Assembly (NCBI GenBank): GCA_045130875.1
Contig: JBGUQI010000018.1
Location: 7,508-71,507 of the forward strand
Direction of reading: 5' to 3'
DNA from: Bacilli bacterium
GTDB taxonomy: Bacteria; Bacillota_I; Bacilli_A; RFN20; CAG-826
DNA length: 64,000 nt
Shown: positions 2,920-38,370 of the stretch, piece after piece
Layout of the letters: each line of letters starts with the position of its first letter
Numbering within the stretch: position 1 is the first letter of the stretch
Program-made: the position numbers and the translations under genes
Notes under the pieces: model-generated
Told to the model about the DNA's origin: nothing
The model's database searches: none
What the model saw: only the letters and a program-made list of their open reading frames with translations

Positions 2920-4992
2920 ATGATCCAATTTAAAAAAGAAAAAGAATTGCCAATTTATACACCCACTAAATGGCAATCTTTTATATTGAAGAATTATGGT
3001 CTGGTGGATGTCTTTACTTTATCCCAAGTTTTAGGCTGTGATAGAAGAACGGTTTTAAGAGAAGCTAAGAGATTAGGATTAGAAAAGGTCTATTTAGATA
3101 ATGCTTGGGTGGAGAAATCATATCTCACCATTATTGAAAATAACTGGGACTTTTTGTCTTATAGACAAATAAAGCAATTATTCAAATGGGATGATAGTAG
3201 ATGGCAATATGAATTAGAGAATAATGATTATATCAAACTCAAACTCGGTAATTACAAACCAGAGATTCAAGATATTAAATATAGCCCTTTAACCAAAGAG
3301 CAAGAAAAAGAAACCAAAAAGATTAGAAGAATTATAGAGAAGAATGTCATAGAGAATTATGCTTCTCCACATTCTTTTAAATATTCAATGCTGAATGCCA
3401 AAAAGACAGAAGGGGAGATGCTCATTTATCCCTATGATTTAGTGTGCAACGATGTCTTGATGTCAGACGATGATATAGTGTCTGAAGAAGCTTTGAAATC
3501 ATACCAAAGTGCGGGTATTACCGCGTTATGGTTTCAACCCCAACTAATTGATTTATCACTATGTCCATTTAGTAACAAAAACAATGATAATTATTTGAAA
3601 AGACGCGCAAAACTCAACGATTTTATTGAAAAATCCGCGCAATATGGCATAAAAATCTATATTTATCTTAATGAACCAAAAGGACTCAATGTTAATGATT
3701 GGAAAGATGAATATAAGTATTTAATGGGCAGAAGAGAAGACGATACTATCGCCATGTGTTTCTCCCAACAAGAAGTCAAAGATTATCTCTATACCGCTAT
3801 ATATGACTTACTAAAAGCAGTACCTAAATTGGGTGGCATTTTCACCATTACAAGTAGCGAAAGCTTAACTCATTGTAAACACAAGATGTATAGCGATTGC
3901 CCGAAGTGTAAAGATATTCCTCCATATGTGATGGCGGCAGAGATTAACAACATCATTTATAAAGCCGTTAGAGATAGTGGAGCCTCTACTCGTGTCGTGG
4001 CTATGCTTTGGGGATGGATGCCATATTGTGAAATTTCTACAGAAGATGCCTTAAAAGGCATAGCCTTAATGGATAAGAATATTGATATCATGTGTGTTAG
4101 TGAATTTGGCACTCATAAATTCGGAAATATCGGTGAATACTCTATCGCCTATGGCGAACCTTGTTTTGAAACCATTAAATTCTTAAAACATGCCAGAAAA
4201 CTTGGCCATAAAGTTTGGGCTAAAATCCAAGTGAATAATAGTTGGGAGATGTCTAGTGTTCCCACGCTACCTTGCTTCGAATTAATAATTAATCATTTAA
4301 CGAAGTTAAAGAAACTAGGTGTGAATGATATTATGCTCTCTTGGACTTTAGGAGGATTCCCCAGTTTCAATATCTCTTTAACTAATTCTGTTTTATCTAA
4401 TGATTTCAACTATAACCTTTGGTTAAAGGATGAATTTGAAGATAACGCCACGTATATTAAGATGGTGTCCCATCTTTTATCTGAAGGATTTAAGAAATTC
4501 CCATTCTCTCTATATCTTTTGTACTTCTCACCACTTAGTTTAGGGCCCGCAAATATGATTTATAGCGAGCCTACTGGCAAGAAAGCCACAATAGTGACAT
4601 TCTCCTATGACGATGTGGATACATGGTTAAATGGGCTTAATAGAGATGATTTTGAATTAAGAATGAATATTCTATTAAGAAAGTTTAAGAAAGCCACGAA
4701 GATTGCTAATTCTTTAGAAGGAAATGAAAAAGTAGAGCAGGTAAAGAGATACACTAATGTCTGGTACATTACCTATAAGTCTTTTATGAATCAATATTAT
4801 TTCTATAAATATAGAAATGATTTAGAAAAGATTAAAAAGATTATCAATGATGAGATTAAAATAACCAAATCACTATATAGATATGCATCTCTTGATAGCA
4901 CGATAGGTTTTGAACCATCAAATCAATATATCTATACTCCAAATATGTTTTTAGAAAAACTATTAGCCCTTTATAAAATAAAGAGCAGATAA
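2920..4992 (+). CDS. uncharacterized 690-aa protein; possibly a TIM-barrel glycoside-hydrolase-like enzyme with an HTH-like N-terminal segment
   Basis: Long uninterrupted ORF 28 nt after the rhamnosidase gene. It has alternating beta/alpha-like segments (IYIYLNEPKG, GGIFTITSSE, MLWGW). The product assignment is weak. Confidence 0.6.
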   Translation: MIQFKKEKELPIYTPTKWQSFILKNYGLVDVFTLSQVLGCDRRTVLREAKRLGLEKVYLDNAWVEKSYLTIIENNWDFLSYRQIKQLFKWDDSRWQYELENNDYIKLKLGNYKPEIQDIKYSPLTKEQEKETKKIRRIIEKNVIENYASPHSFKYSMLNAKKTEGEMLIYPYDLVCNDVLMSDDDIVSEEALKSYQSAGITALWFQPQLIDLSLCPFSNKNNDNYLKRRAKLNDFIEKSAQYGIKIYIYLNEPKGLNVNDWKDEYKYLMGRREDDTIAMCFSQQEVKDYLYTAIYDLLKAVPKLGGIFTITSSESLTHCKHKMYSDCPKCKDIPPYVMAAEINNIIYKAVRDSGASTRVVAMLWGWMPYCEISTEDALKGIALMDKNIDIMCVSEFGTHKFGNIGEYSIAYGEPCFETIKFLKHARKLGHKVWAKIQVNNSWEMSSVPTLPCFELIINHLTKLKKLGVNDIMLSWTLGGFPSFNISLTNSVLSNDFNYNLWLKDEFEDNATYIKMVSHLLSEGFKKFPFSLYLLYFSPLSLGPANMIYSEPTGKKATIVTFSYDDVDTWLNGLNRDDFELRMNILLRKFKKATKIANSLEGNEKVEQVKRYTNVWYITYKSFMNQYYFYKYRNDLEKIKKIINDEIKITKSLYRYASLDSTIGFEPSNQYIYTPNMFLEKLLALYKIKSR

Positions 4993-5000
4993 TATTTAAT

Positions 5001-5822
5001 ATGAAATTATACGATCAACATGTTCATAGTTATTATTCCTTTGATAGCGACCAACCTATTAAAGCATATTTAGACAAAGCCCAAGAACTTGGTCTTGAGT
5101 ATTTTGTTTTAACTGAACACCTTGATGTTAACTATTTAGATAAAGAACCAGATATTAAATTCGACATTGATAAAGAAGAAAAAGAACTAACTGAATTACA
5201 AAAAGAATATCCTAATATTAGGATATTAAGAGGCATAGAAATTGGTTATAAACCTCATAATATGGATGATGTTAAAAGATTTATGAAAGGTCATAGATTT
5301 GATGTGATTAATTTCTCGATGCATGAATCTGATGGTTTAGATTATTACTTTAAAGACGGTTTTAAAGAAAGGGGCATCAAGAAAACCCTAGATGTTTATT
5401 TCCAAAGAGAATACGAGATGGCGAGAGACTATGATGATTATGATGTCTTTTGTCATTTGGACTTTGGATTTAAGACTGCCTACCTCTTGGATAACTCTTT
5501 TAAAATCAACGATTATGAAGAACAACTTTCTCTTATTATGAAAGAGGTAATTAAGAAGGATAAAGCGTTAGAAATTAACACAAAAGTGCAACAATTTTTG
5601 CCTTTAGAGCACACTAAATATATATTATATTTATATAAAAAATTAGGTGGAAAAAACCTCACTTTATCGAGTGATGCACATGTCATTGATAGGTTTTGCA
5701 TCCACTTTGACAAGTATATTTCTTTAATAAAAGAGTGTGGTTTTGACCATTTAAACTATTTTATCGATAGAAAGAGATATGATATTGATATTGATGAATA
5801 TATTTACATTCATAATAATTAA
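5001..5822 (+). CDS. PHP-family phosphoesterase (histidinol-phosphatase HisJ/K-like)
   Basis: N-terminal metal motif YDQHVHSYYSFDS, followed by LTEH, a MHE motif and SSDAH, all typical of PHP histidinol phosphatases. Confidence 0.8.
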   Translation: MKLYDQHVHSYYSFDSDQPIKAYLDKAQELGLEYFVLTEHLDVNYLDKEPDIKFDIDKEEKELTELQKEYPNIRILRGIEIGYKPHNMDDVKRFMKGHRFDVINFSMHESDGLDYYFKDGFKERGIKKTLDVYFQREYEMARDYDDYDVFCHLDFGFKTAYLLDNSFKINDYEEQLSLIMKEVIKKDKALEINTKVQQFLPLEHTKYILYLYKKLGGKNLTLSSDAHVIDRFCIHFDKYISLIKECGFDHLNYFIDRKRYDIDIDEYIYIHNN

Positions 5823-25287: not shown

Positions 25288-26409
25288 GTGATCAACGCAC
25301 CGTTTGTAGCAAAAATAGCATTTATGGATTTTCAAAGGCTAATTAATCAAAAGATTATTCTTAAAGATGGTAGCAAATCTATTATTGAGGATGTGACTCC
25401 CACAAATAAGATAGATGATGTTTTTATATCTTTAGATAACGGTAAAAAACTAAAACTGAGATTTGTTTTAGAAAAAGAAATCATTAGGTTTGCAGATAAA
25501 GATATTCAAAATGAATTATTAAGTCTTATTAATGTTCATTTAGAACAAGAAGCCACAAAGAATTCTGAAATAGAAGAAGCTTATCAATCTGCGGTTGCAA
25601 GTAATAAGCAAAAAGCCATCAATGAATTAAAAGATAAAGTGGTGCATCCTACCTATCATAGGACAAAACAATATCCTAATGTCATTAAAGGTAACAACGT
25701 TGCTTACAAAGCTACATATTGTGATGGTAATGGTGATTGGTTTAAGGCACCATGTTCCATTAATTGTCGAAGATATAATTGTTCTTCTTATGGAGGATTC
25801 TTTTGTAAAACCAATTCTTTATGTAAAGAAGTATTGGATGGCAAGAAAGATGAATCCATTATTCAAGATCAATATAGTAGTGGATTTCTTTGTTATGAAT
25901 CTAGATTATTAATTGATTACACCATATATGCCGGTAGAACCGGCCATGATGAACCTAAAGGTTGGTCTTTAGGATCAAAGAAATTAGTTGTTCTAACAAC
26001 TATTAAACCTGGATATGGCGAAATCGATAGAGTCATCTTTGGTGCTTTCCTTGTTGAAAGAGCGTTTGATAAGACATTAGAAAAAGAAGCTCACGCAGTT
26101 GCATATCAAGAATATAGAATTGCTTTAACTGAAGAAGAATCTGAACAGATGAAATATTGGGACTATGCACCAGGAGATAATGGTGCAAGACCAATTCAAT
26201 GGACAGAGAACTTAACTAGAAAACGCACAGATGATGAATGTGCCTCTATCCTTTATGATTTAGTGAATATCATTAAGAATAGAAATAACAAAGAAGAATC
26301 CGCTAAAGCGGAAGCATTCTTAAATAAGTATTTAGAACTAATACATAGAACTGTAGAAGACATCAAACCCAAAAATGGCGCAAGATTACAGTATTTAAAA
26401 AACAGATAG
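25288..26409 (+). CDS. Cys-rich uncharacterized protein (373 aa)
   Basis: The central cluster YCDGNGDWFKAPCSINCRRYNCSSYGGFFCKTNSLCKEV suggests metal binding. The start is uncertain (GTG at 25288 or ATG at 25324). The stop lies 3 nt before the next gene. Confidence 0.6.
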   Translation: MINAPFVAKIAFMDFQRLINQKIILKDGSKSIIEDVTPTNKIDDVFISLDNGKKLKLRFVLEKEIIRFADKDIQNELLSLINVHLEQEATKNSEIEEAYQSAVASNKQKAINELKDKVVHPTYHRTKQYPNVIKGNNVAYKATYCDGNGDWFKAPCSINCRRYNCSSYGGFFCKTNSLCKEVLDGKKDESIIQDQYSSGFLCYESRLLIDYTIYAGRTGHDEPKGWSLGSKKLVVLTTIKPGYGEIDRVIFGAFLVERAFDKTLEKEAHAVAYQEYRIALTEEESEQMKYWDYAPGDNGARPIQWTENLTRKRTDDECASILYDLVNIIKNRNNKEESAKAEAFLNKYLELIHRTVEDIKPKNGARLQYLKNR

Positions 26410-26412
26410 TTT

Positions 26413-27666
26413 ATGGATGAACATTTAAATATCTTTTATCCCTATTCATTAAAAGAAAGTGACGCTATTAAGGAAGACAACATCACCAGAGCGGCACTTA
26501 TTTCTTTTGATGATATGAAACAAGATGAAAAGATTTGCTTTATTAATAAATTAATAAGTAAAAACATATTATCCAATAAGAATTATAGATTTGAAATTGA
26601 ATTACAACCCACGAGCAGCATAAAACAAGACTGCCAAAAGTTTTTAGTGGGATTTTGTCCAAATGGTAAAGTGGGAGAATATGATTCTTTTGATAATAGT
26701 GTGAACGCTATATATCACGCACCTATCGATCATGATGCTAGACCAGATGGTCAAATCAGTGTTTATGATGGAGATGAATTAGTTGCGGTTATTATATTTG
26801 AGAATAAATTACATAATTTATCTGCCAACCAATTAAAAAGGCATTTTGAATTGATTCTCAATATTACTGATAGAGAAGAAATATCCAATTCTTTGGTGCT
26901 GATTAACTACATAAAATTCTTCTCTCTTTTTAAAGATTCAGAATCAGTTTTATGTAAGAATCTTTTAGAGTTTATGAATATAAATGGTTATATAAAGCCA
27001 GAGTGTTTTAATGATGTTTTGAGATCCAAATATCACAAAAAAGCCAATATTGAATATTTGCTTGGTAAAACCCTTGATATGGTTTGCCGTAGTGGTAAAA
27101 GAGAAAGACAAACTGGATGGGGGGAAATCATCAACATTAAAGACTTAAACCAATGTATTGATATGATTGGTCTTATCTATTATGAGGGTGATGATACGGT
27201 TCGTCTGTGTTTGAAGTTTGCTTCAAGAATGACATCTGCAAGAAGATTCTATTCACACTTAAAAGAAAAGAATATCCATCCAAATAAAGACTTTACTGCA
27301 GAGTTTTGCCTCGGCTATTGGAAAGGGTATATTGAAAGAAGTTTTATAAAAATTAATGATACTAATAAATATATTCAATATTTATTTAATAATATCTCCA
27401 AAATCAAACAATACGAACTTTGTGAGTTAAAACCTTTCATTAAAGATTTAACAACCAAGACAAATACAGAGTTTGATCCTAACAACTATTGCTATGGCGA
27501 CAAGAGATTAACTCATGGTCACATCAATGTCGTTCCTACACTTGACTATTCCAAATATTGGAAGTTGGATGATTTAAAAGAAAAGACCATAGAAGAATTT
27601 GCTAGAGAAGTTGAGCAGTTGATTAATGATTGTTCAAGGCAACTTGATTTAAAAATAGTTTATTGA
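26413..27666 (+). CDS. PD-(D/E)XK-type nuclease candidate (417 aa)
   Basis: ARPDGQISVYDGDELVAVIIFENKLHN gives PD ... E-x-K spacing typical of restriction-endonuclease-fold enzymes. The rest is unassigned. Confidence 0.6.
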   Translation: MDEHLNIFYPYSLKESDAIKEDNITRAALISFDDMKQDEKICFINKLISKNILSNKNYRFEIELQPTSSIKQDCQKFLVGFCPNGKVGEYDSFDNSVNAIYHAPIDHDARPDGQISVYDGDELVAVIIFENKLHNLSANQLKRHFELILNITDREEISNSLVLINYIKFFSLFKDSESVLCKNLLEFMNINGYIKPECFNDVLRSKYHKKANIEYLLGKTLDMVCRSGKRERQTGWGEIINIKDLNQCIDMIGLIYYEGDDTVRLCLKFASRMTSARRFYSHLKEKNIHPNKDFTAEFCLGYWKGYIERSFIKINDTNKYIQYLFNNISKIKQYELCELKPFIKDLTTKTNTEFDPNNYCYGDKRLTHGHINVVPTLDYSKYWKLDDLKEKTIEEFAREVEQLINDCSRQLDLKIVY

Positions 27667-27706
27667 TTTTCTTAAAAAACGCCATTAGTTGGATAAATCT
27701 AACTGA

Positions 27707-27729
27707 TTCCATATTAATGGAATTTTTTA
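27707..27729 (+). terminator. rho-independent terminator
   Basis: TTCCAT-ATTA-ATGGAA stem followed by TTTTTT. Confidence 0.6.
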
Positions 27730-27907
27730 TTGTCCGTTTTTTGGTACACGGCATTTGATATTTGTATATTAAAAGCGTATGTTCCTTGGATAGAAATAGT
27801 TAAAAAACGATTTCCCATGTGTTACACTTTAAGAAATAAATTATTAAATTTCTTTCTTTTTTGTAAGACCAGTTCTTCTTAAAGGAAAAAACTCTGAGGT
27901 ATTTATA

Positions 27908-28228
27908 ATGAAACAAGAGACAATTGAAAGAATAAGAAGATTTACCACTGATAGGGATTGGGATCAATTCCATAGTCCTGCCAATTTAGCAAAATCAATT
28001 TCCATTGAAGCTAATGAATTATTAGAGTGTTTTCAATGGGATGAAGAACACTATGACATCGAAGAAGTTAAAGAAGAACTTGCAGATGTTCTTGTATATT
28101 GTAGAAACATGCTCGATAAACTTGATTTAGATGAAGATGAAATAGTAAATGCTAAAATGGAACAAAATGAGAGAAAATATCCTGTTAGCAAAGCTAAAGG
28201 AAAGGCTGACAAGTATAATAAACTATGA
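27908..28228 (+). CDS. MazG-like nucleotide pyrophosphohydrolase (YpjD-type, 106 aa)
   Basis: DRDWDQFHSPANLAKSISIEANELLECFQW ... ELADVLVYC matches the all-alpha NTP-PPase signature with an ExxE metal motif. Confidence 0.8.
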   Translation: MKQETIERIRRFTTDRDWDQFHSPANLAKSISIEANELLECFQWDEEHYDIEEVKEELADVLVYCRNMLDKLDLDEDEIVNAKMEQNERKYPVSKAKGKADKYNKL

Positions 28229-30084
28229 TTATTTATAACAACACACTTGCAAAATTTAGAGAACACGTCACTCTCAATCTGATGGAACAAATGCTTTTAT
28301 CAGCATTGAGAGATAAAGGTTTGAGTGGTGGTTCTCAAAGTGAAATTAATTCCTGGAACAACTCCCTTCATTTTATGAAAGATGTTCTGGAGGATAATTA
28401 TTTTTCAAGCGACTGCCAAGTAGCTATTGAATATAACATTCCACAAACATCAAAGCGTGTTGACTTTATGATAATGGGTAACAACGGTGTTGAAGACCAT
28501 GTTGTTATCGTTGAATTAAAACAATGGGCAAAGGTTGAAAAGGTTGATGATTCATGTGATCACTCAATAATGTCAGATTTAAAATCGCATGAACCGGTTG
28601 CGCACCCATCTTATCAAGCATACTCATACAAATGTTTAATCTTGGACTATTGTGATGACACTCATGTTAATGATCAAACATTAAAACCGTGTGCCTATCT
28701 TCATAATCTAAGTGAGGCCTATCGCCCAGTTATCGAAGATAATCTATATAGTGAATGGACAACAGAAGCACCTGTATTTTTACAAAAAGATGTTCTCAAA
28801 ATGAGAAATTTTGTTAAGCAATATATTAAGCTCAAAGCTAATGACGGTTCTTTGCTTTATAAAATTGAAGAAGGCAGATTAAGACCAACAAAATCATTAC
28901 AAGATGCTTTAGATTCCATGCTTTGTGGTAACCAAGAATTCCACATGATAGATGAGCAGGTTGTTGCTTATGATAAAATCATGAAAGCCATTAAAGAATC
29001 CCACATTGATAATAAAAAACATGTAATCATAATCACTGGTGGACCAGGCACCGGAAAGTCTGTTTTGGCTATCAATCTTCTTGCTCACTGCATCATTGAT
29101 TTGAAACTCAATGCCTCTTATATCACAAAGAACATGGCGCCTAGAAAGTGCTATGCCAATTTGTTAGCAAAAGGTAATGCTAAAAAAATGATTAATCTGC
29201 AAAAAGCCATCCAATCGCCATGGTGTTTGCCTACAACCATCTATAATGGATTTGATGTTGGCATATATGACGAAGCACATAGAATGCAGAAAAAACCATA
29301 TAGATATTTAGGCAATGATATGCTTGAAGATGCTATTAAAGCCGCAAAAGTATCGGTGTTCTTTGTAGATGATGACCAAAGAATAACGATTGAAGATAAA
29401 TATGATGTTCATTCAATCATCACATACGCAAAAAGAGAGAATGCGATAATCCACAAACCATATGAACTTGTGTCTCAATTCCGATGCGATGGTAGTGATG
29501 GATACATCTCATTCCTAAACAATTTGCTGGAGATAAAACAAACGGCAAATACTGTATTCGAATTTAATAAGTTAAATATAAAAGTATTTGATGATCCGAA
29601 TCAAATGCGAGACGAACTAAGAGAGCTAAATAAAATCAATAATAAATCCCGTATGATAGCTGGTTATTGTTACGATTGGAATGTTAAAAACAATCGTGGT
29701 GAGTGGGATATTATGCTTCCAAACAATTTCAAGGCCAAGTGGAATTTGGAAAACGATGACCACTGGGCGGTTAACCCAAATTCATTTGAAGAAATTGGAT
29801 GCATTCATACTTGCCAAGGTATGGAATTTGATTATGTTGGAGTCTTTATAGGCAACGATCTTTATTATAAAGATGGCCATGTTAGAACTAATAGAAGCGC
29901 AATCTCTAAAGATGATAAGACTAGTGGCATACGCCTTAAATCAACAACCGACGAAGAAGCGGACAAATTAATAAGAAGAACCTATAAAGTCCTACTTACA
30001 AGAGGACTAAAAGGATGCTTTATATATTGTGAAGATAAAGCGTTAAATGAATATCTAAAGAAAGCGCTAGTTAAAAGCAATTAA
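28225..30084 (+). CDS. DUF2075-type protein: N-terminal PD-(D/E)XK-like nuclease module fused to a P-loop SF1-like NTPase
   Basis: VDFMIMG...VVIVELKQW (D...ExK), Walker A GGPGTGKS, Walker B YDEAHRM, and C-terminal CQGMEFDYVGV and YKVLLTRGLKG. A 4-nt ATGA overlap joins it to the MazG gene. Confidence 0.8.
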   Translation: MIIYNNTLAKFREHVTLNLMEQMLLSALRDKGLSGGSQSEINSWNNSLHFMKDVLEDNYFSSDCQVAIEYNIPQTSKRVDFMIMGNNGVEDHVVIVELKQWAKVEKVDDSCDHSIMSDLKSHEPVAHPSYQAYSYKCLILDYCDDTHVNDQTLKPCAYLHNLSEAYRPVIEDNLYSEWTTEAPVFLQKDVLKMRNFVKQYIKLKANDGSLLYKIEEGRLRPTKSLQDALDSMLCGNQEFHMIDEQVVAYDKIMKAIKESHIDNKKHVIIITGGPGTGKSVLAINLLAHCIIDLKLNASYITKNMAPRKCYANLLAKGNAKKMINLQKAIQSPWCLPTTIYNGFDVGIYDEAHRMQKKPYRYLGNDMLEDAIKAAKVSVFFVDDDQRITIEDKYDVHSIITYAKRENAIIHKPYELVSQFRCDGSDGYISFLNNLLEIKQTANTVFEFNKLNIKVFDDPNQMRDELRELNKINNKSRMIAGYCYDWNVKNNRGEWDIMLPNNFKAKWNLENDDHWAVNPNSFEEIGCIHTCQGMEFDYVGVFIGNDLYYKDGHVRTNRSAISKDDKTSGIRLKSTTDEEADKLIRRTYKVLLTRGLKGCFIYCEDKALNEYLKKALVKSN

Positions 30085-30098
30085 GAAAAAAGTAGCAC

Positions 30099-32627
30099 AT
30101 GAATCTAAAACTATTCGAACACAACGGATTTGCTTTAATTGAAAAATACTCTTTTAATGAAAAATATTCTTCGTATGTTTTTTCTGTTGAGGATTTTGTT
30201 GTAATTATTGATAACTGTTTTGATGCTGAAAATGAAAAACACAACTTTTTCAACTATTCGAAGTATTGCGAGATGCAAAACAAATACATGCTCTCCAGTA
30301 GATGCTTGCTTCGATTCAATTTGTCTGGCAACACTTCTAAATTGATAGAAGAGATCATCGATTTAATTAAAAACCACAGCATAAAAGATAATGATTATTT
30401 AGATGATGGAGGCTCTTTTTCTGATGCTCATATTGATAACACTCCTTTAGAATCCTCTTTTGAAGAAATATTTGCTAATGCTTATGGCAATGAAGCGTTG
30501 GAGTGTTTGAGAAAAGAAGTTTCTATTTCGTATGGGGGAAACAAAAACTACTTCATCGACTACGTAATAGAAACAAAAAGTGGAAATTTTGCATTTGAAG
30601 AAAACGGAGTTAATTATCATCACCCATTAATTGTTGGCAAAAAGAGGTATAAAGAATTATTAGATAAACAAAATACCATCATGTTGCTTGGCTATAAGAT
30701 ATATCGTTTTTCTACCGAGAACTTGCATTTTAAAGATAAGGTTGTCGAAGAGCTTAAGTCTTTTTTACCAGATAAAAAAGAATTTATACCAATAATTATT
30801 TTCAAGAATAGTAGAGGTATGGAGTTGTATAGCCATCAAACCGATATTCTTAAACAATTAGATATTGATAGGTTGAGTGGCAAGACGACTTCCTTGGTTG
30901 TTATTCCTACAGCTGCCGGAAAATCTGAAATATGTATTACTGATTTAGAGAAGGAATACATTAAAATGGAAGTTAAGAGAGTTTTAATCATGGTTCCTTC
31001 TTTAAAGATTAAAGAAGATTGGTTAGAAAGAATAAAAGTTATCAAAAAATATTACGAAGTCATTGATGTAATGTTTTACAACAACGTTTTTATTCATCGC
31101 AATGAGCTGTCTCAAGATTATTATGATTATATTGTTTTTGATGAAGCTCACCACGCTCAAGCATCTAACTGCAAAGCGACCATCCAATATTTTACCCCTA
31201 AATATTTAATTGGGTTGACCGCTACCGATGAGAGATTGGATAACCAAAAATTAGAAGAAATATTTGGCAACTATGAAGTCAAATTGACTTTAAAAGAAGC
31301 CATAGATAAAGATGTCATTACAAACATTAGAGCCTACCGTTTGGAGAGCAACATCAACTTAAAAGAAGTTAGATATAATGGCAAAGATTATAATTATTCT
31401 GATTTAGAAAGAACTCTTGTTATTGATTCCAGAAATGAATTGATTGCAGATCTATTAAATAAATATTTTCAACCAAAACAAAACTTTTACAAACAAGGTA
31501 TTATTTTCTGCGTTAATACTGCTCATACAAAAAAAGTGGCAAAATTATTAAAAGATAAGGGTTTAACAGCAGAAGCTGTTTATGGTGGAAATTCTAAAAA
31601 CGACAAAGTATTTGAACAATATAAAAACAAAGAGGTTCAGTTTTTGTGTTCTTGCCAATTAATCTCTGAAGGGTGGGACTCCCCACAAACAGAAGTGGTA
31701 GTGATGGCGAGACCGACGTTATCCAAAGTTTTGTACCTTCAACAGATTGGACGCGGCTTACGGAAGTATCCAGGTAAAGAATGTTTGTATCTTATTGATG
31801 TTGTTGACAATTATTCTTCAAAATTAATTCCATGGAATTTTAATTCATTGTTCCATATATCAACCTATTCCCCATTTATGGGTGTTAAAAACAACGATCA
31901 AGATTATTTGACAATATTTGGATTGTCTGAACATGAGATTGCAATGAAAGAAATAGATATTTTTAGCTTTGAAGAAAAATATAAAGACTATCTATCTCTA
32001 GAGCAGGCCGCCAGAGAATTATTTGTTGGTACTCAAACACTTAATACTTGGAACAAAAACAAAAAATATGCGTCTTTGTATCTTCCAATTGGTAGTAAAG
32101 TTGTTCCCTATTTTTCAGCAAATGATATTTCAAACATAAGATCTGACAAGAATTTAAGCATCCATACAGATGAGACGATACTTAATGATTTCATTGATTT
32201 TATCAATGAAAATACTCTTACTTTCTCGTTTAAATTGGTTTTTCTCATCTACTCACTTCTCCTCGCTGATAAAGAAGGCAACATCAATTTGGATATGTTA
32301 AGCAAGAAGTATGCGGATTTTTATCTTTCTAGATTAAATAAAGGTCTGCCGGTCGATAAAAAGAATTGCATATATAACAAAGACAATCTTTTAAATGAAT
32401 CATTTATTAAAAAGAGCCTATTAGATAATCCCTTTGAAAAATTTGAAAGAAAAAGATTCTTCTACCATTCAAAGGATTTAAATATTGTTTCTTTCAATTT
32501 TGCCCTTTGGACAAAAATGAATGATTCAATAAAAAAAGATATAATGGATAAAGAAATGAAATTTTTGAAAGAATATTATTCAAAATACGGAGGATATGAC
32601 AATGGATATCAATTCAAAATATTATGA
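30099..32627 (+). CDS. SF2 DEAD/DEAH-type helicase (type III restriction res-like) with an N-terminal Vsr/DUF559-like nuclease-fold module and a C-terminal HTH-like/unknown domain
   Basis: N-terminus FIDYVIETKSGNFAFEENGVNYHH. Helicase motifs PTAAGKSE, FDEAHHAQ, GLTATDER and QQIGRGLRK. The ~250-aa C-terminal region is unassigned. Confidence 0.8.
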   Translation: MNLKLFEHNGFALIEKYSFNEKYSSYVFSVEDFVVIIDNCFDAENEKHNFFNYSKYCEMQNKYMLSSRCLLRFNLSGNTSKLIEEIIDLIKNHSIKDNDYLDDGGSFSDAHIDNTPLESSFEEIFANAYGNEALECLRKEVSISYGGNKNYFIDYVIETKSGNFAFEENGVNYHHPLIVGKKRYKELLDKQNTIMLLGYKIYRFSTENLHFKDKVVEELKSFLPDKKEFIPIIIFKNSRGMELYSHQTDILKQLDIDRLSGKTTSLVVIPTAAGKSEICITDLEKEYIKMEVKRVLIMVPSLKIKEDWLERIKVIKKYYEVIDVMFYNNVFIHRNELSQDYYDYIVFDEAHHAQASNCKATIQYFTPKYLIGLTATDERLDNQKLEEIFGNYEVKLTLKEAIDKDVITNIRAYRLESNINLKEVRYNGKDYNYSDLERTLVIDSRNELIADLLNKYFQPKQNFYKQGIIFCVNTAHTKKVAKLLKDKGLTAEAVYGGNSKNDKVFEQYKNKEVQFLCSCQLISEGWDSPQTEVVVMARPTLSKVLYLQQIGRGLRKYPGKECLYLIDVVDNYSSKLIPWNFNSLFHISTYSPFMGVKNNDQDYLTIFGLSEHEIAMKEIDIFSFEEKYKDYLSLEQAARELFVGTQTLNTWNKNKKYASLYLPIGSKVVPYFSANDISNIRSDKNLSIHTDETILNDFIDFINENTLTFSFKLVFLIYSLLLADKEGNINLDMLSKKYADFYLSRLNKGLPVDKKNCIYNKDNLLNESFIKKSLLDNPFEKFERKRFFYHSKDLNIVSFNFALWTKMNDSIKKDIMDKEMKFLKEYYSKYGGYDNGYQFKIL

Positions 32628-33186
32628 TGACAACGCAGACGCTTTTATAACAGATACTTTTGAGTGTGATATGTCTGTTCAATATCACTTTTTTGAAAAG
32701 GAACTAAAAAAGAATGCCAAAACAATATTAGATTTAGGTTTTGGATCTGGAAGAGACTCACTATATTTTCTAAATAAAGGATTTGAAATATACGCAATTG
32801 ATCCATCAAAAAAGTTTTGTGATAACGCCAAAAAGTTGGGTATTAAAAATGTCTTTCAAATAACTGCTCAGGAGATGGAATTTAATAATCTGTTTGATGG
32901 AATATGGGCGTGTGCATCTTTGCTTCATGTGCCTTCAAAGGAATTAAATGATGTATTTAAAAGATGTGCATCTGCTTTGAAAAATAGCGGTGTTATATAT
33001 GTGTCATTTAAATATGGTGTGTTCGAAGGTGAAAGAAACGGCAGGGAGTTTCTTGATTTAGATGAAACCGGCTTACAAAAGTACCTTGAAAACACCCATC
33101 TAATCATCAAAGAAGTACTAATTACTGAAGACGTAAGGCCTGACAAAACAACAAAATGGCTAAACGCAATATTAATTAAGAAATAA
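32602..33186 (+). CDS. small class I SAM-dependent methyltransferase (not an obvious DNA methyltransferase)
   Basis: Motif I ILDLGFGSGRDS, then ACASLLHV. GGAGG lies 8 nt before the ATG at 32602. The gene overlaps the helicase 3' end. Confidence 0.75.
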   Translation: MDINSKYYDDNADAFITDTFECDMSVQYHFFEKELKKNAKTILDLGFGSGRDSLYFLNKGFEIYAIDPSKKFCDNAKKLGIKNVFQITAQEMEFNNLFDGIWACASLLHVPSKELNDVFKRCASALKNSGVIYVSFKYGVFEGERNGREFLDLDETGLQKYLENTHLIIKEVLITEDVRPDKTTKWLNAILIKK

Positions 33187-33206
33187 AGATAAGAGTGGCG
33201 GAATTT

Positions 33207-35291
33207 ATGAAACCAAGACTAAGAAAAACACCAGGAAGAACCTATTACGAATCCTCTATTGAAGATTTTGTGTCGAACAAATATCCAACTGATATAGTTG
33301 ATTTTTTGACTGAGAGTGATGAATCATCAGATCCATATGAGTTATATCTTCAAAAAGGTGCTTGGTCCAATCAAATTAAAATACTTCAAAAATATTTGAA
33401 AGATAAAAAAGGCTACATTATTTTTGAGTACGTTTTATCTAGAGTTAACATGCGCATTGATGTTGTTTTATTAATGGACGGCATCGTCTATTCTCTAGAG
33501 TTTAAGAATAACGAAACAACATTTGAGCCAAGCGCTATTGATCAGGCTGGTGGATATGGCTATGCCTTAAAAAACTTCTATGAAGTTAACAGAGATAAAT
33601 ATGTTGTTCCCATTCTTATAGCCACCAAGGCTCCAGACAGCGATTGTTCTTCGGGGTCTGATTTGGGAATTGATAAGTTGTTTTCTTTATTTAAAGCAAA
33701 CACCAATAAGATGGAACAATATATAGATCTTATTAGAAGTAAATATGGCTCCGAAGTTTTGTATACAGAGGAAGAATTTGAAAACTGGATAAATTCCCCC
33801 TTTAAACCAAATCCCACAATTATTCAAAGCGCCAGATCCATTTATATGAACAATCAGGTAGATGAGTTCTTTAAATTTGATGCCGGTGAGGAAAATTTAA
33901 AAATAACAGAAAGAACTGTCGAGTTGATAGTTAGTGAAGCAAAGGAAAATAAGAAAAAGATTATATGTTTTGTTTCTGGCGTTCCTGGTGCTGGCAAAAC
34001 TTTGGTTGGCTTGGATTTGGCTGGTAAAAGCAAAAACGATAATAGTGATGAGTTCTTTGATACTGTATTCTTCAGCGGCAACGGACCTTTAATAAACGTC
34101 TTGACTGAAGCCTTAGGAAGAGATGCTTATAAAAAAGATTCGACTAAGTATACTTCGAAGTATCAAGCTGTTAGTGATGTAAAGGCTTTTATCCAGGATT
34201 TGCACGCTTTTAAGCAGGATATTATATCCACCAAAAAGAAAGTAATTAATGAAAATGTCTTAATATTCGATGAAGCCCAAAGGGTTTGGGACGAAGAACA
34301 ATTGGAAAAATGGCTAACGAAAAAAGGCGCCGATAAATCATATTATGGTTTGTCTGAGGCCGATCTATTATTGAGCACATTCAACAAAAAAGAATGGGGA
34401 GTCATTGTTGCATTAGTAGGGCTTGGTCAAGATATCCACACTGGTGAAGATGGTTTGGGGGTCTGGTTCAAATCACTTCTTAACAAACATAAAGAATGGG
34501 AGATTAGATTGTCTAAAGAAATCTTTTCTCAAAGAGCGGATAATCTATCTTCATATATTGAATCAATAAAGAATTGCCCCAGAGTAAAAGAAGATCCCGG
34601 CCTTTATTTAAAAACATGTATTAGAACTCCAAGAGCCAAAAACCTATCTGAATTTGCAGAAGCACTTCTCCATAACGAACCAGAAAAAGCTAAAGTGGCG
34701 CTTGAGAACTTCGACGATTATCCAATTTGTATAACCAGAGATTTAAAATATGCTGAACTATTTGTTTCTAGCAATATGTCCAGAAAAGAAAGATGCGGAA
34801 AGCTCTGTAGTAGCAACAGTAAAATATTAGGCAGACTTAGTCATAATTTTGACAACATAGATAATTGGCATTTTGCTAATTGGATGCTTGACGAAAGTGG
34901 TAGAGATTCATCAAACTCTTTAGTTTTTTCGGCCTCTGAATTCAATATTCAAGGATTAGAAATAGACTGGTCATTATTAGGCTGGGATATGGATATGTAT
35001 TATTCAAATGGTGAATGGCATCAACAGAAGATGCTTACCCCAAAACGATTTGTTGAAAGCACAGATGTTCAGAAGAAGCACATTTTAAATTCCTATCGTG
35101 TGCTTCTTACTAGAGCCAGAAAAGGAATGATAATTTACATTCCAAAAGCCAATGATTTTCCAGATTTATATGATGTTGCTAAGTATTATGATTCGACTTA
35201 CAACTATCTCAAATCATGTGGAATCAAAGATATAGAAGAAACTAGCGGTGAGTTTTTAAAAATACCTAACGCAGTTAGATTGCCGTTTTAA
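33207..35291 (+). CDS. second DUF2075-type nuclease-NTPase fusion (paralogue-like of 28225-30084)
   Basis: IDVVLLMDGIVYSLEFKNN (D...ExK), Walker A GVPGAGKT, Walker B FDEAQRVW, and C-terminal IQGLEIDWSLLGW and YRVLLTRARKG. The track starts at GTG 33195. Confidence 0.8.
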   Translation: MKPRLRKTPGRTYYESSIEDFVSNKYPTDIVDFLTESDESSDPYELYLQKGAWSNQIKILQKYLKDKKGYIIFEYVLSRVNMRIDVVLLMDGIVYSLEFKNNETTFEPSAIDQAGGYGYALKNFYEVNRDKYVVPILIATKAPDSDCSSGSDLGIDKLFSLFKANTNKMEQYIDLIRSKYGSEVLYTEEEFENWINSPFKPNPTIIQSARSIYMNNQVDEFFKFDAGEENLKITERTVELIVSEAKENKKKIICFVSGVPGAGKTLVGLDLAGKSKNDNSDEFFDTVFFSGNGPLINVLTEALGRDAYKKDSTKYTSKYQAVSDVKAFIQDLHAFKQDIISTKKKVINENVLIFDEAQRVWDEEQLEKWLTKKGADKSYYGLSEADLLLSTFNKKEWGVIVALVGLGQDIHTGEDGLGVWFKSLLNKHKEWEIRLSKEIFSQRADNLSSYIESIKNCPRVKEDPGLYLKTCIRTPRAKNLSEFAEALLHNEPEKAKVALENFDDYPICITRDLKYAELFVSSNMSRKERCGKLCSSNSKILGRLSHNFDNIDNWHFANWMLDESGRDSSNSLVFSASEFNIQGLEIDWSLLGWDMDMYYSNGEWHQQKMLTPKRFVESTDVQKKHILNSYRVLLTRARKGMIIYIPKANDFPDLYDVAKYYDSTYNYLKSCGIKDIEETSGEFLKIPNAVRLPF

Positions 35292-35451
35292 TGTTTCCAA
35301 CAATTATTTAAAGAACGCAAAATCAATTATAAAAATATTATGGCGCTTATTACATGTCCAGAACGCTAGAAGTTATCAACAATATTAAGAACCCTAAAGA
35401 AACATCGAATGATGGGGAATGCTTATAAACCAATTTATCAGGAGAAATAAT

Positions 35452-35853
35452 ATGAAGAATAAATTATCAAATAAAATATTTAACATTATTGGATTAATTT
35501 CTATTATTTTAGCGGTGGTGTTCATGTTAACAACTACTGCGGATAGTAATAATTCTATGGTTCATTATGCAATTGAATATCAGAAGGCTGCTCCTCTTGT
35601 TGGTTTTGTAATTACATTGATAACACTTCTTGGTGGTATTTTTGTGACAGTACTTTCTGTGATAGGAAAGGCACACAAATATGATTGGATTGAAAGTATG
35701 TTTCTAGCGGCATTATTTATTTATTTTTTAGCCATAGTTTTAGGTGATAAAAATAACGACTTTTTTAGGAACGGTTTTCATGAAAGCACCTCTAAAGCAA
35801 TAATGTGTATAGGCATTGGCTCTGTTTGTTATGGGGTTGGAGCACTTATTTAA
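35452..35853 (+). CDS. small polytopic membrane protein
   Basis: GGAG RBS, then ATG at 35452. Four hydrophobic segments. Confidence 0.55.
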   Translation: MKNKLSNKIFNIIGLISIILAVVFMLTTTADSNNSMVHYAIEYQKAAPLVGFVITLITLLGGIFVTVLSVIGKAHKYDWIESMFLAALFIYFLAIVLGDKNNDFFRNGFHESTSKAIMCIGIGSVCYGVGALI

Positions 35854-35859
35854 AAATTA

Positions 35860-36726
35860 ATGACTCAAGAAATATCTCAATTATTATTAGTTTTATTAGT
35901 TTTATTCCTCGTTGGCTTTGTTATATCACTCGCGATATTTTTGCCTCTTTTCCTCACATATATGTGCAGGACGAGGTATCGCGATTTTGTAAAGTTACAT
36001 AGTAAAGCATTAAGAGAATTAAAGTATATTAACTATAAATATAATAGACAGTTTATTAGGATTCCTAATTTTGATATGTCTCATTCATATGATAATGAAA
36101 ACTTCTACGATGACATATCATGTGAAGACTATTTAATTTATGGCCTTGTCAGCAAACAAAAAGAAGTACTAAAGGGATTGAAAGATACTTTAAGCAACAT
36201 TGAAGTATGTAAGAGTTATCAAACAGAAATAGATGCCATAGATACATTTACTGAGTTTGATGCCGATATAGGTCCTTTGAAAAGAAAAAGGTTGGAAAAG
36301 ATAGAAGAAGATATGTTTGATGATGAGGTATTAACACCAGACATTGATTTTAAAATAACTGTTGAATTAACAAGAACCAATATTAATGGTGACTATCAAG
36401 ATAGTAAGAGCAGAACTTTTTATCCCAAAGAGATCAAAACCATCATTGCTCAGTTAAATCAAAAAAGAGGCAATTTCTACACAAATGAAGATATTTGGCA
36501 CGCGATTTGCCGTGTTGAAAGAGGTAAAGTGTCTAATAAAATGAGATTTGCCATCTATGCTAGAGATGGATATCGTTGCAAGAAGTGTGGAAAGAAACAT
36601 GATGGTGATAATTTAGAAATTGATCACATCTATCCGATTGCTAAAGGTGGCAAGTCAACTTATGACAACTTACAAACCTTATGCAGAAGATGCAACAAAA
36701 ATAAGGGTGCTAATGTAGAATATTAA
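35860..36726 (+). CDS. membrane-anchored HNH endonuclease
   Basis: N-terminal TM helix LLLVLLVLFLVGFVISLAIFLPLFL. C-terminal CKKCGKK...LEIDHIYPIAKGGKSTYDNLQTLCRRCNKNKG is an HNH/zinc-finger motif. Confidence 0.8.
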   Translation: MTQEISQLLLVLLVLFLVGFVISLAIFLPLFLTYMCRTRYRDFVKLHSKALRELKYINYKYNRQFIRIPNFDMSHSYDNENFYDDISCEDYLIYGLVSKQKEVLKGLKDTLSNIEVCKSYQTEIDAIDTFTEFDADIGPLKRKRLEKIEEDMFDDEVLTPDIDFKITVELTRTNINGDYQDSKSRTFYPKEIKTIIAQLNQKRGNFYTNEDIWHAICRVERGKVSNKMRFAIYARDGYRCKKCGKKHDGDNLEIDHIYPIAKGGKSTYDNLQTLCRRCNKNKGANVEY

Positions 36727-36727
36727 T

Positions 36728-37012
36728 ATGTCTCCAAATAATACAAACCACAGAGCAGGTAGAATGATGATGAGAGCAATGGGTCCCGCCGCTTTCTTTA
36801 TTACACTATTAGCCTTTATACTTCCTCCTGTTGGATTTTTGTTAGCTTTTAGGGGATTTTGGATAGATCGACAAAACGGTGAAAGATATGTTGGCTGGAT
36901 AGTGGTGATGGCTATCGCTGTTTTTGCATCACTCGTTATGATTGCTGGCTTAATTGCATTATTAACTTATAGTGGCGAGACCGCTGAAGAGGTTGCTTTA
37001 TTGCTTTTATAA
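36728..37012 (+). CDS. small two-TM membrane protein
   Basis: Starts 1 nt after the HNH gene stop. Two hydrophobic helices. Confidence 0.55.
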   Translation: MSPNNTNHRAGRMMMRAMGPAAFFITLLAFILPPVGFLLAFRGFWIDRQNGERYVGWIVVMAIAVFASLVMIAGLIALLTYSGETAEEVALLLL

Positions 37013-37128
37013 TCAATGTCCATATTTTGGGACATACACCTTGTTAGATTGTTAATAAGAGATTTAAAATCTCAAAAGTGATTTTATATTGATAGTTACG
37101 ATATAATAAATTGAACGGAGATATTCTT

Positions 37129-38370
37129 ATGTTAGAAATTATTATTTTAGTTATCGCATCCTTATTACTCATTGTGGGTATTGTTATTTTAATTATCTTA
37201 ATTAAGAGAAAACCTCAGGTTAATAACAATACAAATAATGAGTTAGATCTAAAAGAAATAGGAGCGTTATCCACTCAATTGGATAATCTTTCTAAAGATA
37301 TCAAGAAAGATATCGAATTAGCGGTATCTAAAGAGATGAATAACTCCTATGAAGTATTAGGCAAACAAAGTGAAAAGAATAATGAGAAATTAGAGAGATT
37401 CCAAGCTAACATCACTGAATCCTTAAATAAGAGATTTGATGCTTTAAACGAACAGATGAATAATCGTTTAAATGACATCAACAAGAAAGTTGATGAAAAA
37501 CTCCAAGAAGGATTTAAAGGAACATCTGAATCAATGGCGCAGGTCAGAGAAAGATTACAAGCCATTGATGATGCGCAAAAGAATATTGAATCATTATCTA
37601 AAGATGTTGTTTCTTTAAAGAATGTCTTAGAAGGCAATCAATCTAGAGGTAAATATGGTGAATACCAATTGAGCATGGTATTACATAATGTCTTTGGAGA
37701 CACAATTGGTTGTTATGAAGAACAATATACGATGAAGAAAGTCAAAGATGGTGATGATGTTAGAGCGGATGCCGTAGTGTTCATGCCTGAACCTAATAAG
37801 ATGATCTGTATCGACTCTAAGTTCCCATTCCAAGACTATAACCGTATCTTTGAATCCACAGATGAAGAAGAGATTAATAAATTAAAGAAAGAATTTACGG
37901 CTTCAGTTAAGAAGCATATTACTGCGATTAAAGATAAATATATTGTGGAAGGTAAAACCGCACCTGAAGCGATTATGTTTATCCCTAATGATGGTGTCTT
38001 CGCCTTTATCCATCAACACTGCGATGATGCAGTAGAGTTTGCTCGTGAAAAACGAGTGGTGTTAACTTCGCCAAGTACCTTACCATCTATCTTAGTCACT
38101 ATTAATATGGTGCGTATCGAAGTTGAAAGAGCAAAGAATGTCCAAGAGATATCTAAACAATTAAATAGATTAAGTAAAGACTTCGAGATGTTTGGTAAAG
38201 AATGGGATACATTCTCTAACCAATTAGAGAAAGCCTCTAATAGTAGAGAGAAACTCGATAAACGAGTGGGAAGAATCACTACGAAGTTTGAAGCTATTAA
38301 AACCAGCAATCCTCAAGAGATAACTGCGGATGAGGTAGTGGAAGTCGATTATAACGAATCTAATGATTAA
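37129..38370 (+). CDS. rmuC: DNA recombination protein RmuC
   Basis: N-terminal TM helix and coiled coil, then GKYGEYQLSMVLHNVFG ... ADAVVFMPEPNKMICIDSKFP, typical of RmuC. Confidence 0.85.
   Translation: MLEIIILVIASLLLIVGIVILIILIKRKPQVNNNTNNELDLKEIGALSTQLDNLSKDIKKDIELAVSKEMNNSYEVLGKQSEKNNEKLERFQANITESLNKRFDALNEQMNNRLNDINKKVDEKLQEGFKGTSESMAQVRERLQAIDDAQKNIESLSKDVVSLKNVLEGNQSRGKYGEYQLSMVLHNVFGDTIGCYEEQYTMKKVKDGDDVRADAVVFMPEPNKMICIDSKFPFQDYNRIFESTDEEEINKLKKEFTASVKKHITAIKDKYIVEGKTAPEAIMFIPNDGVFAFIHQHCDDAVEFAREKRVVLTSPSTLPSILVTINMVRIEVERAKNVQEISKQLNRLSKDFEMFGKEWDTFSNQLEKASNSREKLDKRVGRITTKFEAIKTSNPQEITADEVVEVDYNESND

Follow-up and report, generated by a model that had tools for sequence, protein, structure and literature searches.

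A five-gene nuclease-helicase and methyltransferase cassette in a Bacilli bacterium that is probably assembled from separable defence modules

We analysed a stretch of 64,000 nucleotides (nt) from a Bacilli bacterium (assembly GCA_045130875.1, contig JBGUQI010000018.1, positions 7,508 to 71,507 of the forward strand), referred to below as the window, with positions counted from its first letter. Positions 27908-35291 of the window hold a co-directional cassette of five genes, called here A to E, which sits in a chromosomal defence island and is probably co-transcribed. We think it probable, though far from certain, that this block consists of three modules, A-B, C-D and E, each able to exist alone and repeatedly assembled in the same order. 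Overall, the block appears to provide nuclease-helicase immunity with nucleotide-pool accessories and accessories resembling restriction-modification (R-M), a defence role that we assign by comparative genomics. A preliminary description of the same sequence had presented the five genes as one candidate undescribed defence system. The block and its 5' boundary are laid out as follows (all PADLOC comparisons in this text were made with PADLOC v2, 2023; aa, amino acids):

27705-27731, + strand: terminator-like hairpin and U run, the 5' boundary of the block, which ends the upstream gene pair
27908-28228, + strand: gene A (106 aa), DCTPP1/RS21-C6 (MazG-like) all-alpha nucleoside triphosphate (NTP) pyrophosphatase
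28225-30084, + strand: gene B (619 aa), N-terminal PD-(D/E)xK motif and DUF2075/superfamily 1 (SF1) helicase, Nhi-like architecture
30099-32627, + strand: gene C (842 aa), predicted restriction-fold nuclease, superfamily 2 (SF2) DEAH helicase and winged helix-turn-helix (HTH)
32602-33186, + strand: gene D (194 aa), class I S-adenosylmethionine (SAM) methyltransferase of the small-molecule type
33207-35291, + strand: gene E (694 aa), predicted nuclease-DUF2075 protein, member of PADLOC candidate PDC-S41

The five open reading frames (ORFs) and the way they join, the terminator-like hairpin upstream, and the Walker and D..ExK motifs were all found as first described, and the junctions bear out the tight coupling of the genes. 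A and B share an ATGA overlap, 14 nt separate B from C, and D begins within C. Of the two alternative starts for D, 32596 and 32602, the second is the better one, because GGAGG is found 8 nt ahead of its ATG. From the end of D to the ATG of E at 33207 there are 20 nt; this ATG, rather than 33195, was confirmed as the start of E by the length of its homologues (693-694 aa). At the 5' end, the hairpin (27705-27724; 8-bp stem, folding free energy -7.1 kcal/mol, z -3.2) is followed by a U run; it had been missed by the terminator consensus scan because it is AT-rich. Promoter-like hexamers, which are consensus matches only, lie at 27741-27783, and no terminator was found downstream of E. Co-directionality in itself says little, because all ORFs of at least 100 aa in the window, excluding those nested in longer + strand ORFs, are on the + strand.

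The modular reading is favoured because every module is far commoner alone than in the complete block. Anchoring on B, we scanned the best 80 metagenome loci of at least 583 B relatives, and found a MazG homologue adjacent to the B-type gene in 52 of them, usually immediately upstream. C was absent from all 80 loci and a D-like methyltransferase was present in one (L123). The scan anchored on C comprised one genome per species (61 loci, plus L001-L006), 53 of these loci being assessable. A methyltransferase adjoined C in 45 non-redundant loci of these 53, in the order C-D in 24 and D-C in 21, and most of these pairs overlapped or abutted. A-B accompanied C in only three loci, namely the window, L007 (B-A-C-D) and L054 (A-B-x-x-D-C), and about 42 of the 45 C-D loci were without it. 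E was next to C only in the window, and close homologues of E (76-85% identity) stood alone in all four contexts sampled with E as anchor (L148, L150, L156 and L157). These counts do not support the notion of a single, indivisible five-gene unit.

Two other observations point in the same direction. Stand-alone copies of E are as similar to the E of the window (76-85% identity) as are the copies found within cassettes (75-81%), so that E shows no sign of co-evolving with its partners. Furthermore, genes of the SauUSI type adjoin A-B (5/80 loci) and C-D (2 of about 50 loci) at comparable rates, which corresponds to the background level of clustering in defence islands.

The five-role cassette is not a one-off, because two other genome contexts show the same order of roles, an HNH nuclease standing in for C. 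These were found among the contexts of five D homologues taken outside the C-linked set (2/5), and their flanks differ:

L153/L154: MazG (106 aa)-DUF2075 (651 aa)-HNH (326 aa)-methyltransferase (194 aa)-DUF2075 (694 aa), followed by GmrSD genes
L159/L160: MazG (115 aa)-CpXC-DUF2075 (652 aa)-HNH (322 aa)-methyltransferase (205 aa)-DUF2075 (694 aa), between an MjaI-type R-M system and a NOV_C giant

The co-conservation that the preliminary description wished to see checked was therefore found for the order of roles, with HNH replacing the helicase. Compared with the window, the proteins of L153 and L159 show identities of 89% for A, 81% and 75% for E, 57% and 59% for D, and 36% and 33% for B, while C is wholly replaced in both. 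Partial cassettes are present in L007 and L054, in the orders given above, and in L123 (B-D-HNH). In L159, a 211-aa CpXC-domain protein (4469-5104) is inserted between the MazG and DUF2075 genes. A giant NOV_C protein of 1480-1516 aa follows an E-type DUF2075 gene in two contexts (L150, 10173-14615; L159, 10921-15471), and this may be a recurrent pairing.

This recurrence is what speaks for an integrated, multi-component defence system, in which the NTP pyrophosphatase, the first DUF2075 protein, a swappable nuclease, the methyltransferase and the second DUF2075 protein would be interdependent; all three nucleases could, for example, rely on D for the marking of self DNA, or A could tune the deoxynucleoside triphosphate (dNTP) pool for the whole complex. 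We regard such a system as rather unlikely, while recognizing that several points argue for it and weigh against the modular reading. The swapping is role for role, at very different degrees of divergence, within a conserved A...E frame, which is more in line with an integrated system than with chance neighbours; the junctions from A to D measure 0-14 nt or overlap in all three versions of the cassette; and the partial combinations in L007, L054 and L123 join the same partners. The anchored samples are also small and non-random (5 D-anchored and 4 E-anchored contexts), and the balance could shift. Against interdependence stand the frequencies given above, the two contexts (L152 and L155) in which the HNH-D pair occurs alone, and the fact that PADLOC's authors catalogued the family of E as a single-gene candidate. 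We therefore retain three modules as the preferred reading; they may work together biochemically or may simply have been selected side by side. Of the candidate undescribed defence system, what stood was the defence-type neighbourhood and the recurring order of five roles, and what did not was its being indivisible and wholly undescribed.

Gene A matches the Pfam family PF12643 (MazG-like; 2e-15) and, among proteins of the PDB, the pyrophosphatase 4qgp (9e-20) and dCTP pyrophosphatase 1 (RS21-C6; 1.6e-15), in agreement with its initial assignment as MazG-like. The EXXE...EXXD metal-binding residues (E34, E37, E40, E57 and D60) show no variation among 33 homologues. A is thus a clear homologue of the DCTPP1/RS21-C6 house-cleaning pyrophosphatases, and DCTPP1 prefers 5-modified dCTP. 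It differs from house-cleaning MazG proteins by its frequent pairing with an Nhi-like DUF2075 protein, for which we found no paper in the literature searched. One paper lists MazG as one of the domains with a predicted defence role directed at nucleotides, and none of these has been experimentally validated (DefensePredictor, 2026, PMC13092281).

The two DUF2075 proteins, B and E, match Pfam PF09848 (DUF2075/SLFN-g3 helicase) at 3e-88 and 1e-58, respectively. Residues E69, D80, E97 and K99, the Walker A motif (GxxGxGK[ST]) and the DEAxR motif (DEAHR in B) are 100% conserved in 70 sequences of the B family, and E aligns to this family with its own D..EFK, GVPGAGKT and DEAQR. These motifs suggest that both proteins carry an N-terminal PD-(D/E)xK nuclease. 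In PADLOC, B gave partial matches to PDC-S41 (1.5e-24, C-terminal third), AbiO and Nhi. The match of E to the PDC-S41 hidden Markov model (HMM; PDLC05014) was of a different order (2e-180, 599 bits) and ran end to end, residues 15-681 aligning with profile positions 3-654 of 657. By this profile match, E is a full-length member of PDC-S41, which PADLOC treats as a single-gene system. A match to a named system was therefore obtained for one gene of the block. PDC-S41 is itself a computational candidate, and no mention of it was found in the literature searched. Its behaviour as an autonomous gene in other islands agrees with the stand-alone copies of E, while in the window, L153 and L159, E differs in being the last gene of a five-gene cassette. 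The homologues of E form more than 100 clusters with 73-85% identity.

In S. epidermidis, the Nhi protein (SERP2475) constitutes a defence on its own and reportedly degrades the replication intermediates of phages (Bari et al., bioRxiv 10.1101/776245), and a published 'Nhi-like' protein has no sequence identity to Nhi (Millman et al., bioRxiv 10.1101/2022.05.11.491447). B and E share with both the succession of an N-terminal PD-(D/E)xK motif and a DUF2075 SF1-type helicase. They differ from Nhi in that the PADLOC Nhi model matches only part of the helicase region (B, 1.4e-15; E, 1e-5), and in that B-type genes usually have the MazG/DCTPP1-like partner described above. By their architecture, B and E can be counted as additions to the Nhi-like kind, the family of E having already been catalogued.

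Gene C encodes a beta-rich region (residues 1-100), a segment with a predicted restriction-endonuclease-like fold (about 116-222; nt 30444-30764), an SF2 DEAH helicase (241-575; nt 30819-31823), a MerR/RacA-type winged HTH (about 631-686; nt 31989-32156) and a helical part (687-842) with an invariant NPFEKFERKRF motif. The helicase matches Pfam ResIII (1.5e-17) and Helicase_C (3e-12). The terminal domains were modelled on shallow alignments (23 sequences). The model of residues 1-238 (predicted local distance difference test score, pLDDT, 86) shows an alpha-beta-beta-beta-alpha-beta unit at 116-222 with invariant E140, D154, E167 and H174. Its Foldseek matches were weak (E 0.07-0.3) and consistently PD-(D/E)xK nucleases, namely Bax1, R2 endonuclease, AF1548, Can2 and Cas4. 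The model of residues 575-842 (pLDDT 78) contains a MerR/RacA/Xis-type winged HTH (RacA, probability 1.0, template modelling score 0.64 over 56 residues), while the helical domain after it had no confident Foldseek match. For neither model did Foldseek return a match at E < 0.001, and we relied on consistency of the fold class alone. A profile search of the termini against PDB sequences gave a weak RacA HTH (E 0.04) and nothing for the N-terminus, which also lacks a Pfam match. The N-terminus is thus probably a restriction-fold, PD-(D/E)xK-like nuclease, as suggested by weak but consistent structural matches. The Vsr/DUF559-like motif first proposed there found no counterpart in Pfam, though the nuclease class that it implied agrees with the Foldseek matches. 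As for the C-terminal stretch of about 250 aa, initially left unassigned, part of it turned out to be the winged HTH and the helical remainder is still without a confident match.

The closest PADLOC models to C were those of mREase_IV (PDLC03658/PDLC03659; 3e-32), which covered the helicase core only (residues 245-579). This recalls the SauUSI-type (type IV) enzymes, to which C is similar in overall build: a nuclease, then an SF2 helicase, then a DNA-interacting region at the C-terminus. C differs from them by a predicted restriction-fold N-terminal domain instead of PLDc, and by a winged HTH and helical domain instead of DUF3427, neither PLDc nor DUF3427 being matched, whereas a genuine SauUSI-type protein (c31) showed both. 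Moreover, unlike type IV enzymes, C as a rule has a methyltransferase coupled to it. Among 8000 candidates scored, 712 homologues of C were found at E <= 1e-5. The 61 loci of the C-anchored scan belonged to Erysipelotrichaceae, Sharpea, Solobacterium, Lachnospiraceae, Acholeplasmatales, Cetobacterium/Fusobacteriaceae and one Methanomicrobium contig. No full-length C was present in the plasmid database, and one unannotated 'Bacteriophage sp.' faecal contig of the phage database carried a copy with 40% identity.

Gene D matches Pfam Methyltransf_11/25 (1e-12) and none of the families N6_Mtase, N6_N4_Mtase or DNA_methylase. At motif IV it reads WACASLLH, compared with (D/N/S)PPY in amino-methyltransferases, which agrees with the earlier remark that it lacks DPPY and PC/ENV motifs. 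When its family profile was compared with the PDB, the best match was 3e23 (the uncharacterised RPA2492, 2e-31), followed by phosphoethanolamine N-methyltransferases and TehB. The family has about 2,400 homologues at E <= 1e-10, and the methyltransferases paired with C fall into two subtypes about 25% identical to each other. D also matched mad2 of the MADS system (2.7e-15; profile positions 289-408 of 492). We considered this match as a sign that D might be a DNA methyltransferase and rejected it, since it extends over no more than the generic SAM-binding core.

A second tight partner of D-type methyltransferases is a 320-326-aa protein bearing a Cas9-type HNH (HNH_4) domain. No common D-binding domain was detected when this HNH partner was compared with the C-terminus of C by hhalign, and the HNH protein of L123 gave no match with C in BLASTP. 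The two contexts in which HNH-D is found without DUF2075 (L152, 236-5999; L155, 1-5998) resemble each other: upstream of the pair stand unknown proteins of 532-645 aa and one of about 1050 aa that matches RNA_pol_A_CTD and Sigma70_r4; these upstream proteins had no PADLOC match, and this may be another conserved neighbourhood. In a further lineage of D (L161-L163; from 8001 in L161 and L162, and from 404 in L163), the methyltransferase is followed by a conserved series of unknown genes of 320-331, 82, 339 and 119 aa, an AAA ATPase of 535 aa and a gene of 184 aa, with an HNH gene in one of the three contigs.

The preliminary description held that the block was not a classical R-M, BREX or DISARM arrangement, and this was upheld both by the motifs and Pfam matches of D and by the absence of PADLOC signature components. 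As in classical R-M (types I-III), a nuclease/translocase is tightly coupled to a SAM methyltransferase, and one methyltransferase family is combined with alternative nucleases. In contrast to R-M, D is devoid of DPPY/NPPY or PC motifs and of a target-recognition domain, C can occur without a methyltransferase, and the block has no specificity subunit. It likewise has no PglZ, BrxC or DrmA/B, which sets it apart from MADS, BREX and DISARM, and apart from the SAM-binding core of D on mad2 no mad component was matched. The mad2 protein makes N6-methyladenine (m6A) at a bipartite site. None of the pairs MazG-DUF2075, C-D and HNH-D gave a complete system match in PADLOC, and none was found in the literature searched.

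The neighbours of C-D (128 proteins from 44 loci) were compared with PADLOC and matched BrxP, JetA, MzaC, DrmD, a CBASS cyclase, mREase_IV and many PDC families. The neighbourhood of L001 includes SIR2-HerA and Dcm-MutH-like genes, and that of L003 an integrase, MobL and BrxA. Several neighbours are putative nucleotide hydrolases. A protein of 104-108 aa, called c2, lies beside C in 10 non-redundant loci and bears the NCBI name nucleoside triphosphate pyrophosphohydrolase; it had no match in Pfam, NCBIfam or PDB. NUDIX genes adjoin C in L001 and L038 and lie close to it in L007, and an HDIG-like protein adjoins C in L048, where its match (5.9e-6) fell slightly short of the curated cutoff. SauUSI-type PLD-helicase-DUF3427 genes of 914-1220 aa were observed beside MazG-DUF2075 or NUDIX-C-D in L007 (13037-16317), L038 (1962-5372), L089, L094, L109 and L119. 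A NUDIX gene is often beside the SauUSI-type enzymes (L007, L038 and L089), which may be a sign of a wider association between dNTP hydrolases and modification-dependent nucleases.

Within the three-module reading, we propose that B and E would work in the manner of Nhi, by recognizing phage DNA or replication intermediates and degrading them. C would be an ATP-driven translocating nuclease with a DNA-binding tail, serving as the effector nuclease of the C-D module and being translationally coupled to D. D would provide its coupled nuclease (C here, HNH elsewhere) with a SAM-dependent function in immunity or discrimination. R-M-like self-marking is the commonest reason for a nuclease to be paired with a methyltransferase, and an unconventional self-marking methylation is, by this analogy, our leading guess for D, one that we put forward tentatively and with somewhat less than even confidence. 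Alternatively, D might control the nuclease, for instance by SAM-dependent restraint, or methylate nucleotides. The adjacent NTP hydrolases (MazG/DCTPP1-like, c2, NUDIX and HD) would act on the dNTP pool, either by starving replication or by removing the modified dNTPs with which phages render their DNA resistant to nucleases. The recurrence of several hydrolase families beside C, B and SauUSI-type enzymes suggests that clearance of modified dNTPs or depletion of dNTPs is part of the action of these nucleases.

Several findings fit less well with this mechanism. The nearest solved relatives of D are small-molecule methyltransferases. The self-marking idea is weakened because C is found without an adjacent methyltransferase in 8 of the 53 loci (L017, L031, L033, L043, L045, L046/L059 and L048), which include the complete chromosome of Cetobacterium somerae. 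The assignment of c2 as a hydrolase rests on its NCBI name and on an EExxE...EELAD motif, and its comparison with the MazG-like family by hhalign gave a probability of 1%.

Another reading holds that C-D and HNH-D form a nucleotide-centred system of a new type: D would methylate a free nucleotide or make a non-canonical DNA mark other than m6A, N4-methylcytosine or 5-methylcytosine, the nuclease would read this mark, and the hydrolase would police modified dNTPs. Besides the small-molecule relatives of D and its lack of DNA-methyltransferase motifs, this reading draws on the four nucleotide-hydrolase families immediately beside C, on the homology of A with DCTPP1, and on the NUDIX genes found alongside modification-dependent enzymes of the SauUSI type as well (L007, L038 and L089). 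We nevertheless hold it to be improbable. About 70% of the C-D loci are without an adjacent hydrolase, as is most of the Lachnospiraceae D-C clade, except for L054, where A-B is close by; and some RNA and protein methyltransferases, too, have generic Methyltransf_11/25 folds. We give an equally small chance to the idea that the chemistry of the methyltransferase is categorically new. No better are the prospects of the broader view that D-type methyltransferases define a new restriction-like class of immunity, with a non-canonical DNA or nucleotide mark, interchangeable nucleases reading it, and hydrolases and Nhi-like DUF2075 proteins as integrated partners. On that view, the five-gene cassette would be a genuine multi-layer system linking the editing of the nucleotide pool to the degradation of DNA.

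Some C loci have other surroundings. In L046 (12588-16257) and L059, both without methyltransferase, C is followed by four conserved genes of 506, 206-248, 180-226 and 175 aa, the 506-aa one with a faint HSDR_N_2-like match, and these may be an alternative partner set. In L033 (Methanomicrobium mobile BP, NZ_JOMF01000009.1; 9655-12463), a small NTP pyrophosphohydrolase of the bacterial type stands with a C that is 57% identical to that of the window, again without methyltransferase; this copy, on a contig from the genome of an archaeal isolate, is due to contamination or else to a horizontal transfer that reached a rumen methanogen.

On the 5' side of the block, a + strand gene pair separated by 3 nt (25288-26409, 373 aa, and 26413-27666, 417 aa) directly precedes the cassette and ends at the hairpin. 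It had no significant match in Pfam, NCBIfam or PADLOC, apart from a sub-threshold APOBEC3-like one (9e-4), and could be another uncharacterised defence pair. Directly 3' of E (35419-37012), two genes for membrane proteins, the first of 144 aa and the second of 94 aa, enclose a gene whose 288-aa product carries an IscB/Cas9-type HNH domain at its C-terminus (6e-15). They are followed, 1.8 kb downstream of the block, by a homologue of RmuC (37111-38370; 7e-61, PADLOC RTasRmuC 2e-23). The HNH protein, the membrane proteins and RmuC are possibly a further defence module.

The proximity of RmuC, together with the existence of housekeeping relatives of MazG, NUDIX and SF1/SF2 helicases, could also be taken to mean that the block is not immune in nature and that it gathers genes for repair, recombination and nucleotide house-cleaning. 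This appears very improbable in view of the patchy spread of the genes over Bacillota, Fusobacteria and one archaeal contig, of the presence of some copies on integrase/MobL elements, of neighbourhoods dominated by known and candidate defence genes, and of the full-length match of E to a defence-candidate HMM.

Homologues were named as Acholeplasmatales, Bacilli and Bacillales metagenome-assembled genomes. If these points are confirmed, D would represent a widespread family that does not resemble DNA methyltransferases and is coupled to two unrelated nucleases, which would mean a new self-marking chemistry or a new form of nuclease control. Hydrolases of at least three assigned families (DCTPP1-like MazG, NUDIX and the borderline HDIG-like one), as well as c2, would be recurrent neighbours of nuclease-helicases, and sanitation or depletion of the dNTP pool would then be a built-in partner of nuclease-based immunity. 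With its role-for-role swapping in uncultured gut and rumen Bacillota, the cassette offers a tractable case for finding out whether neighbouring defence modules cooperate.

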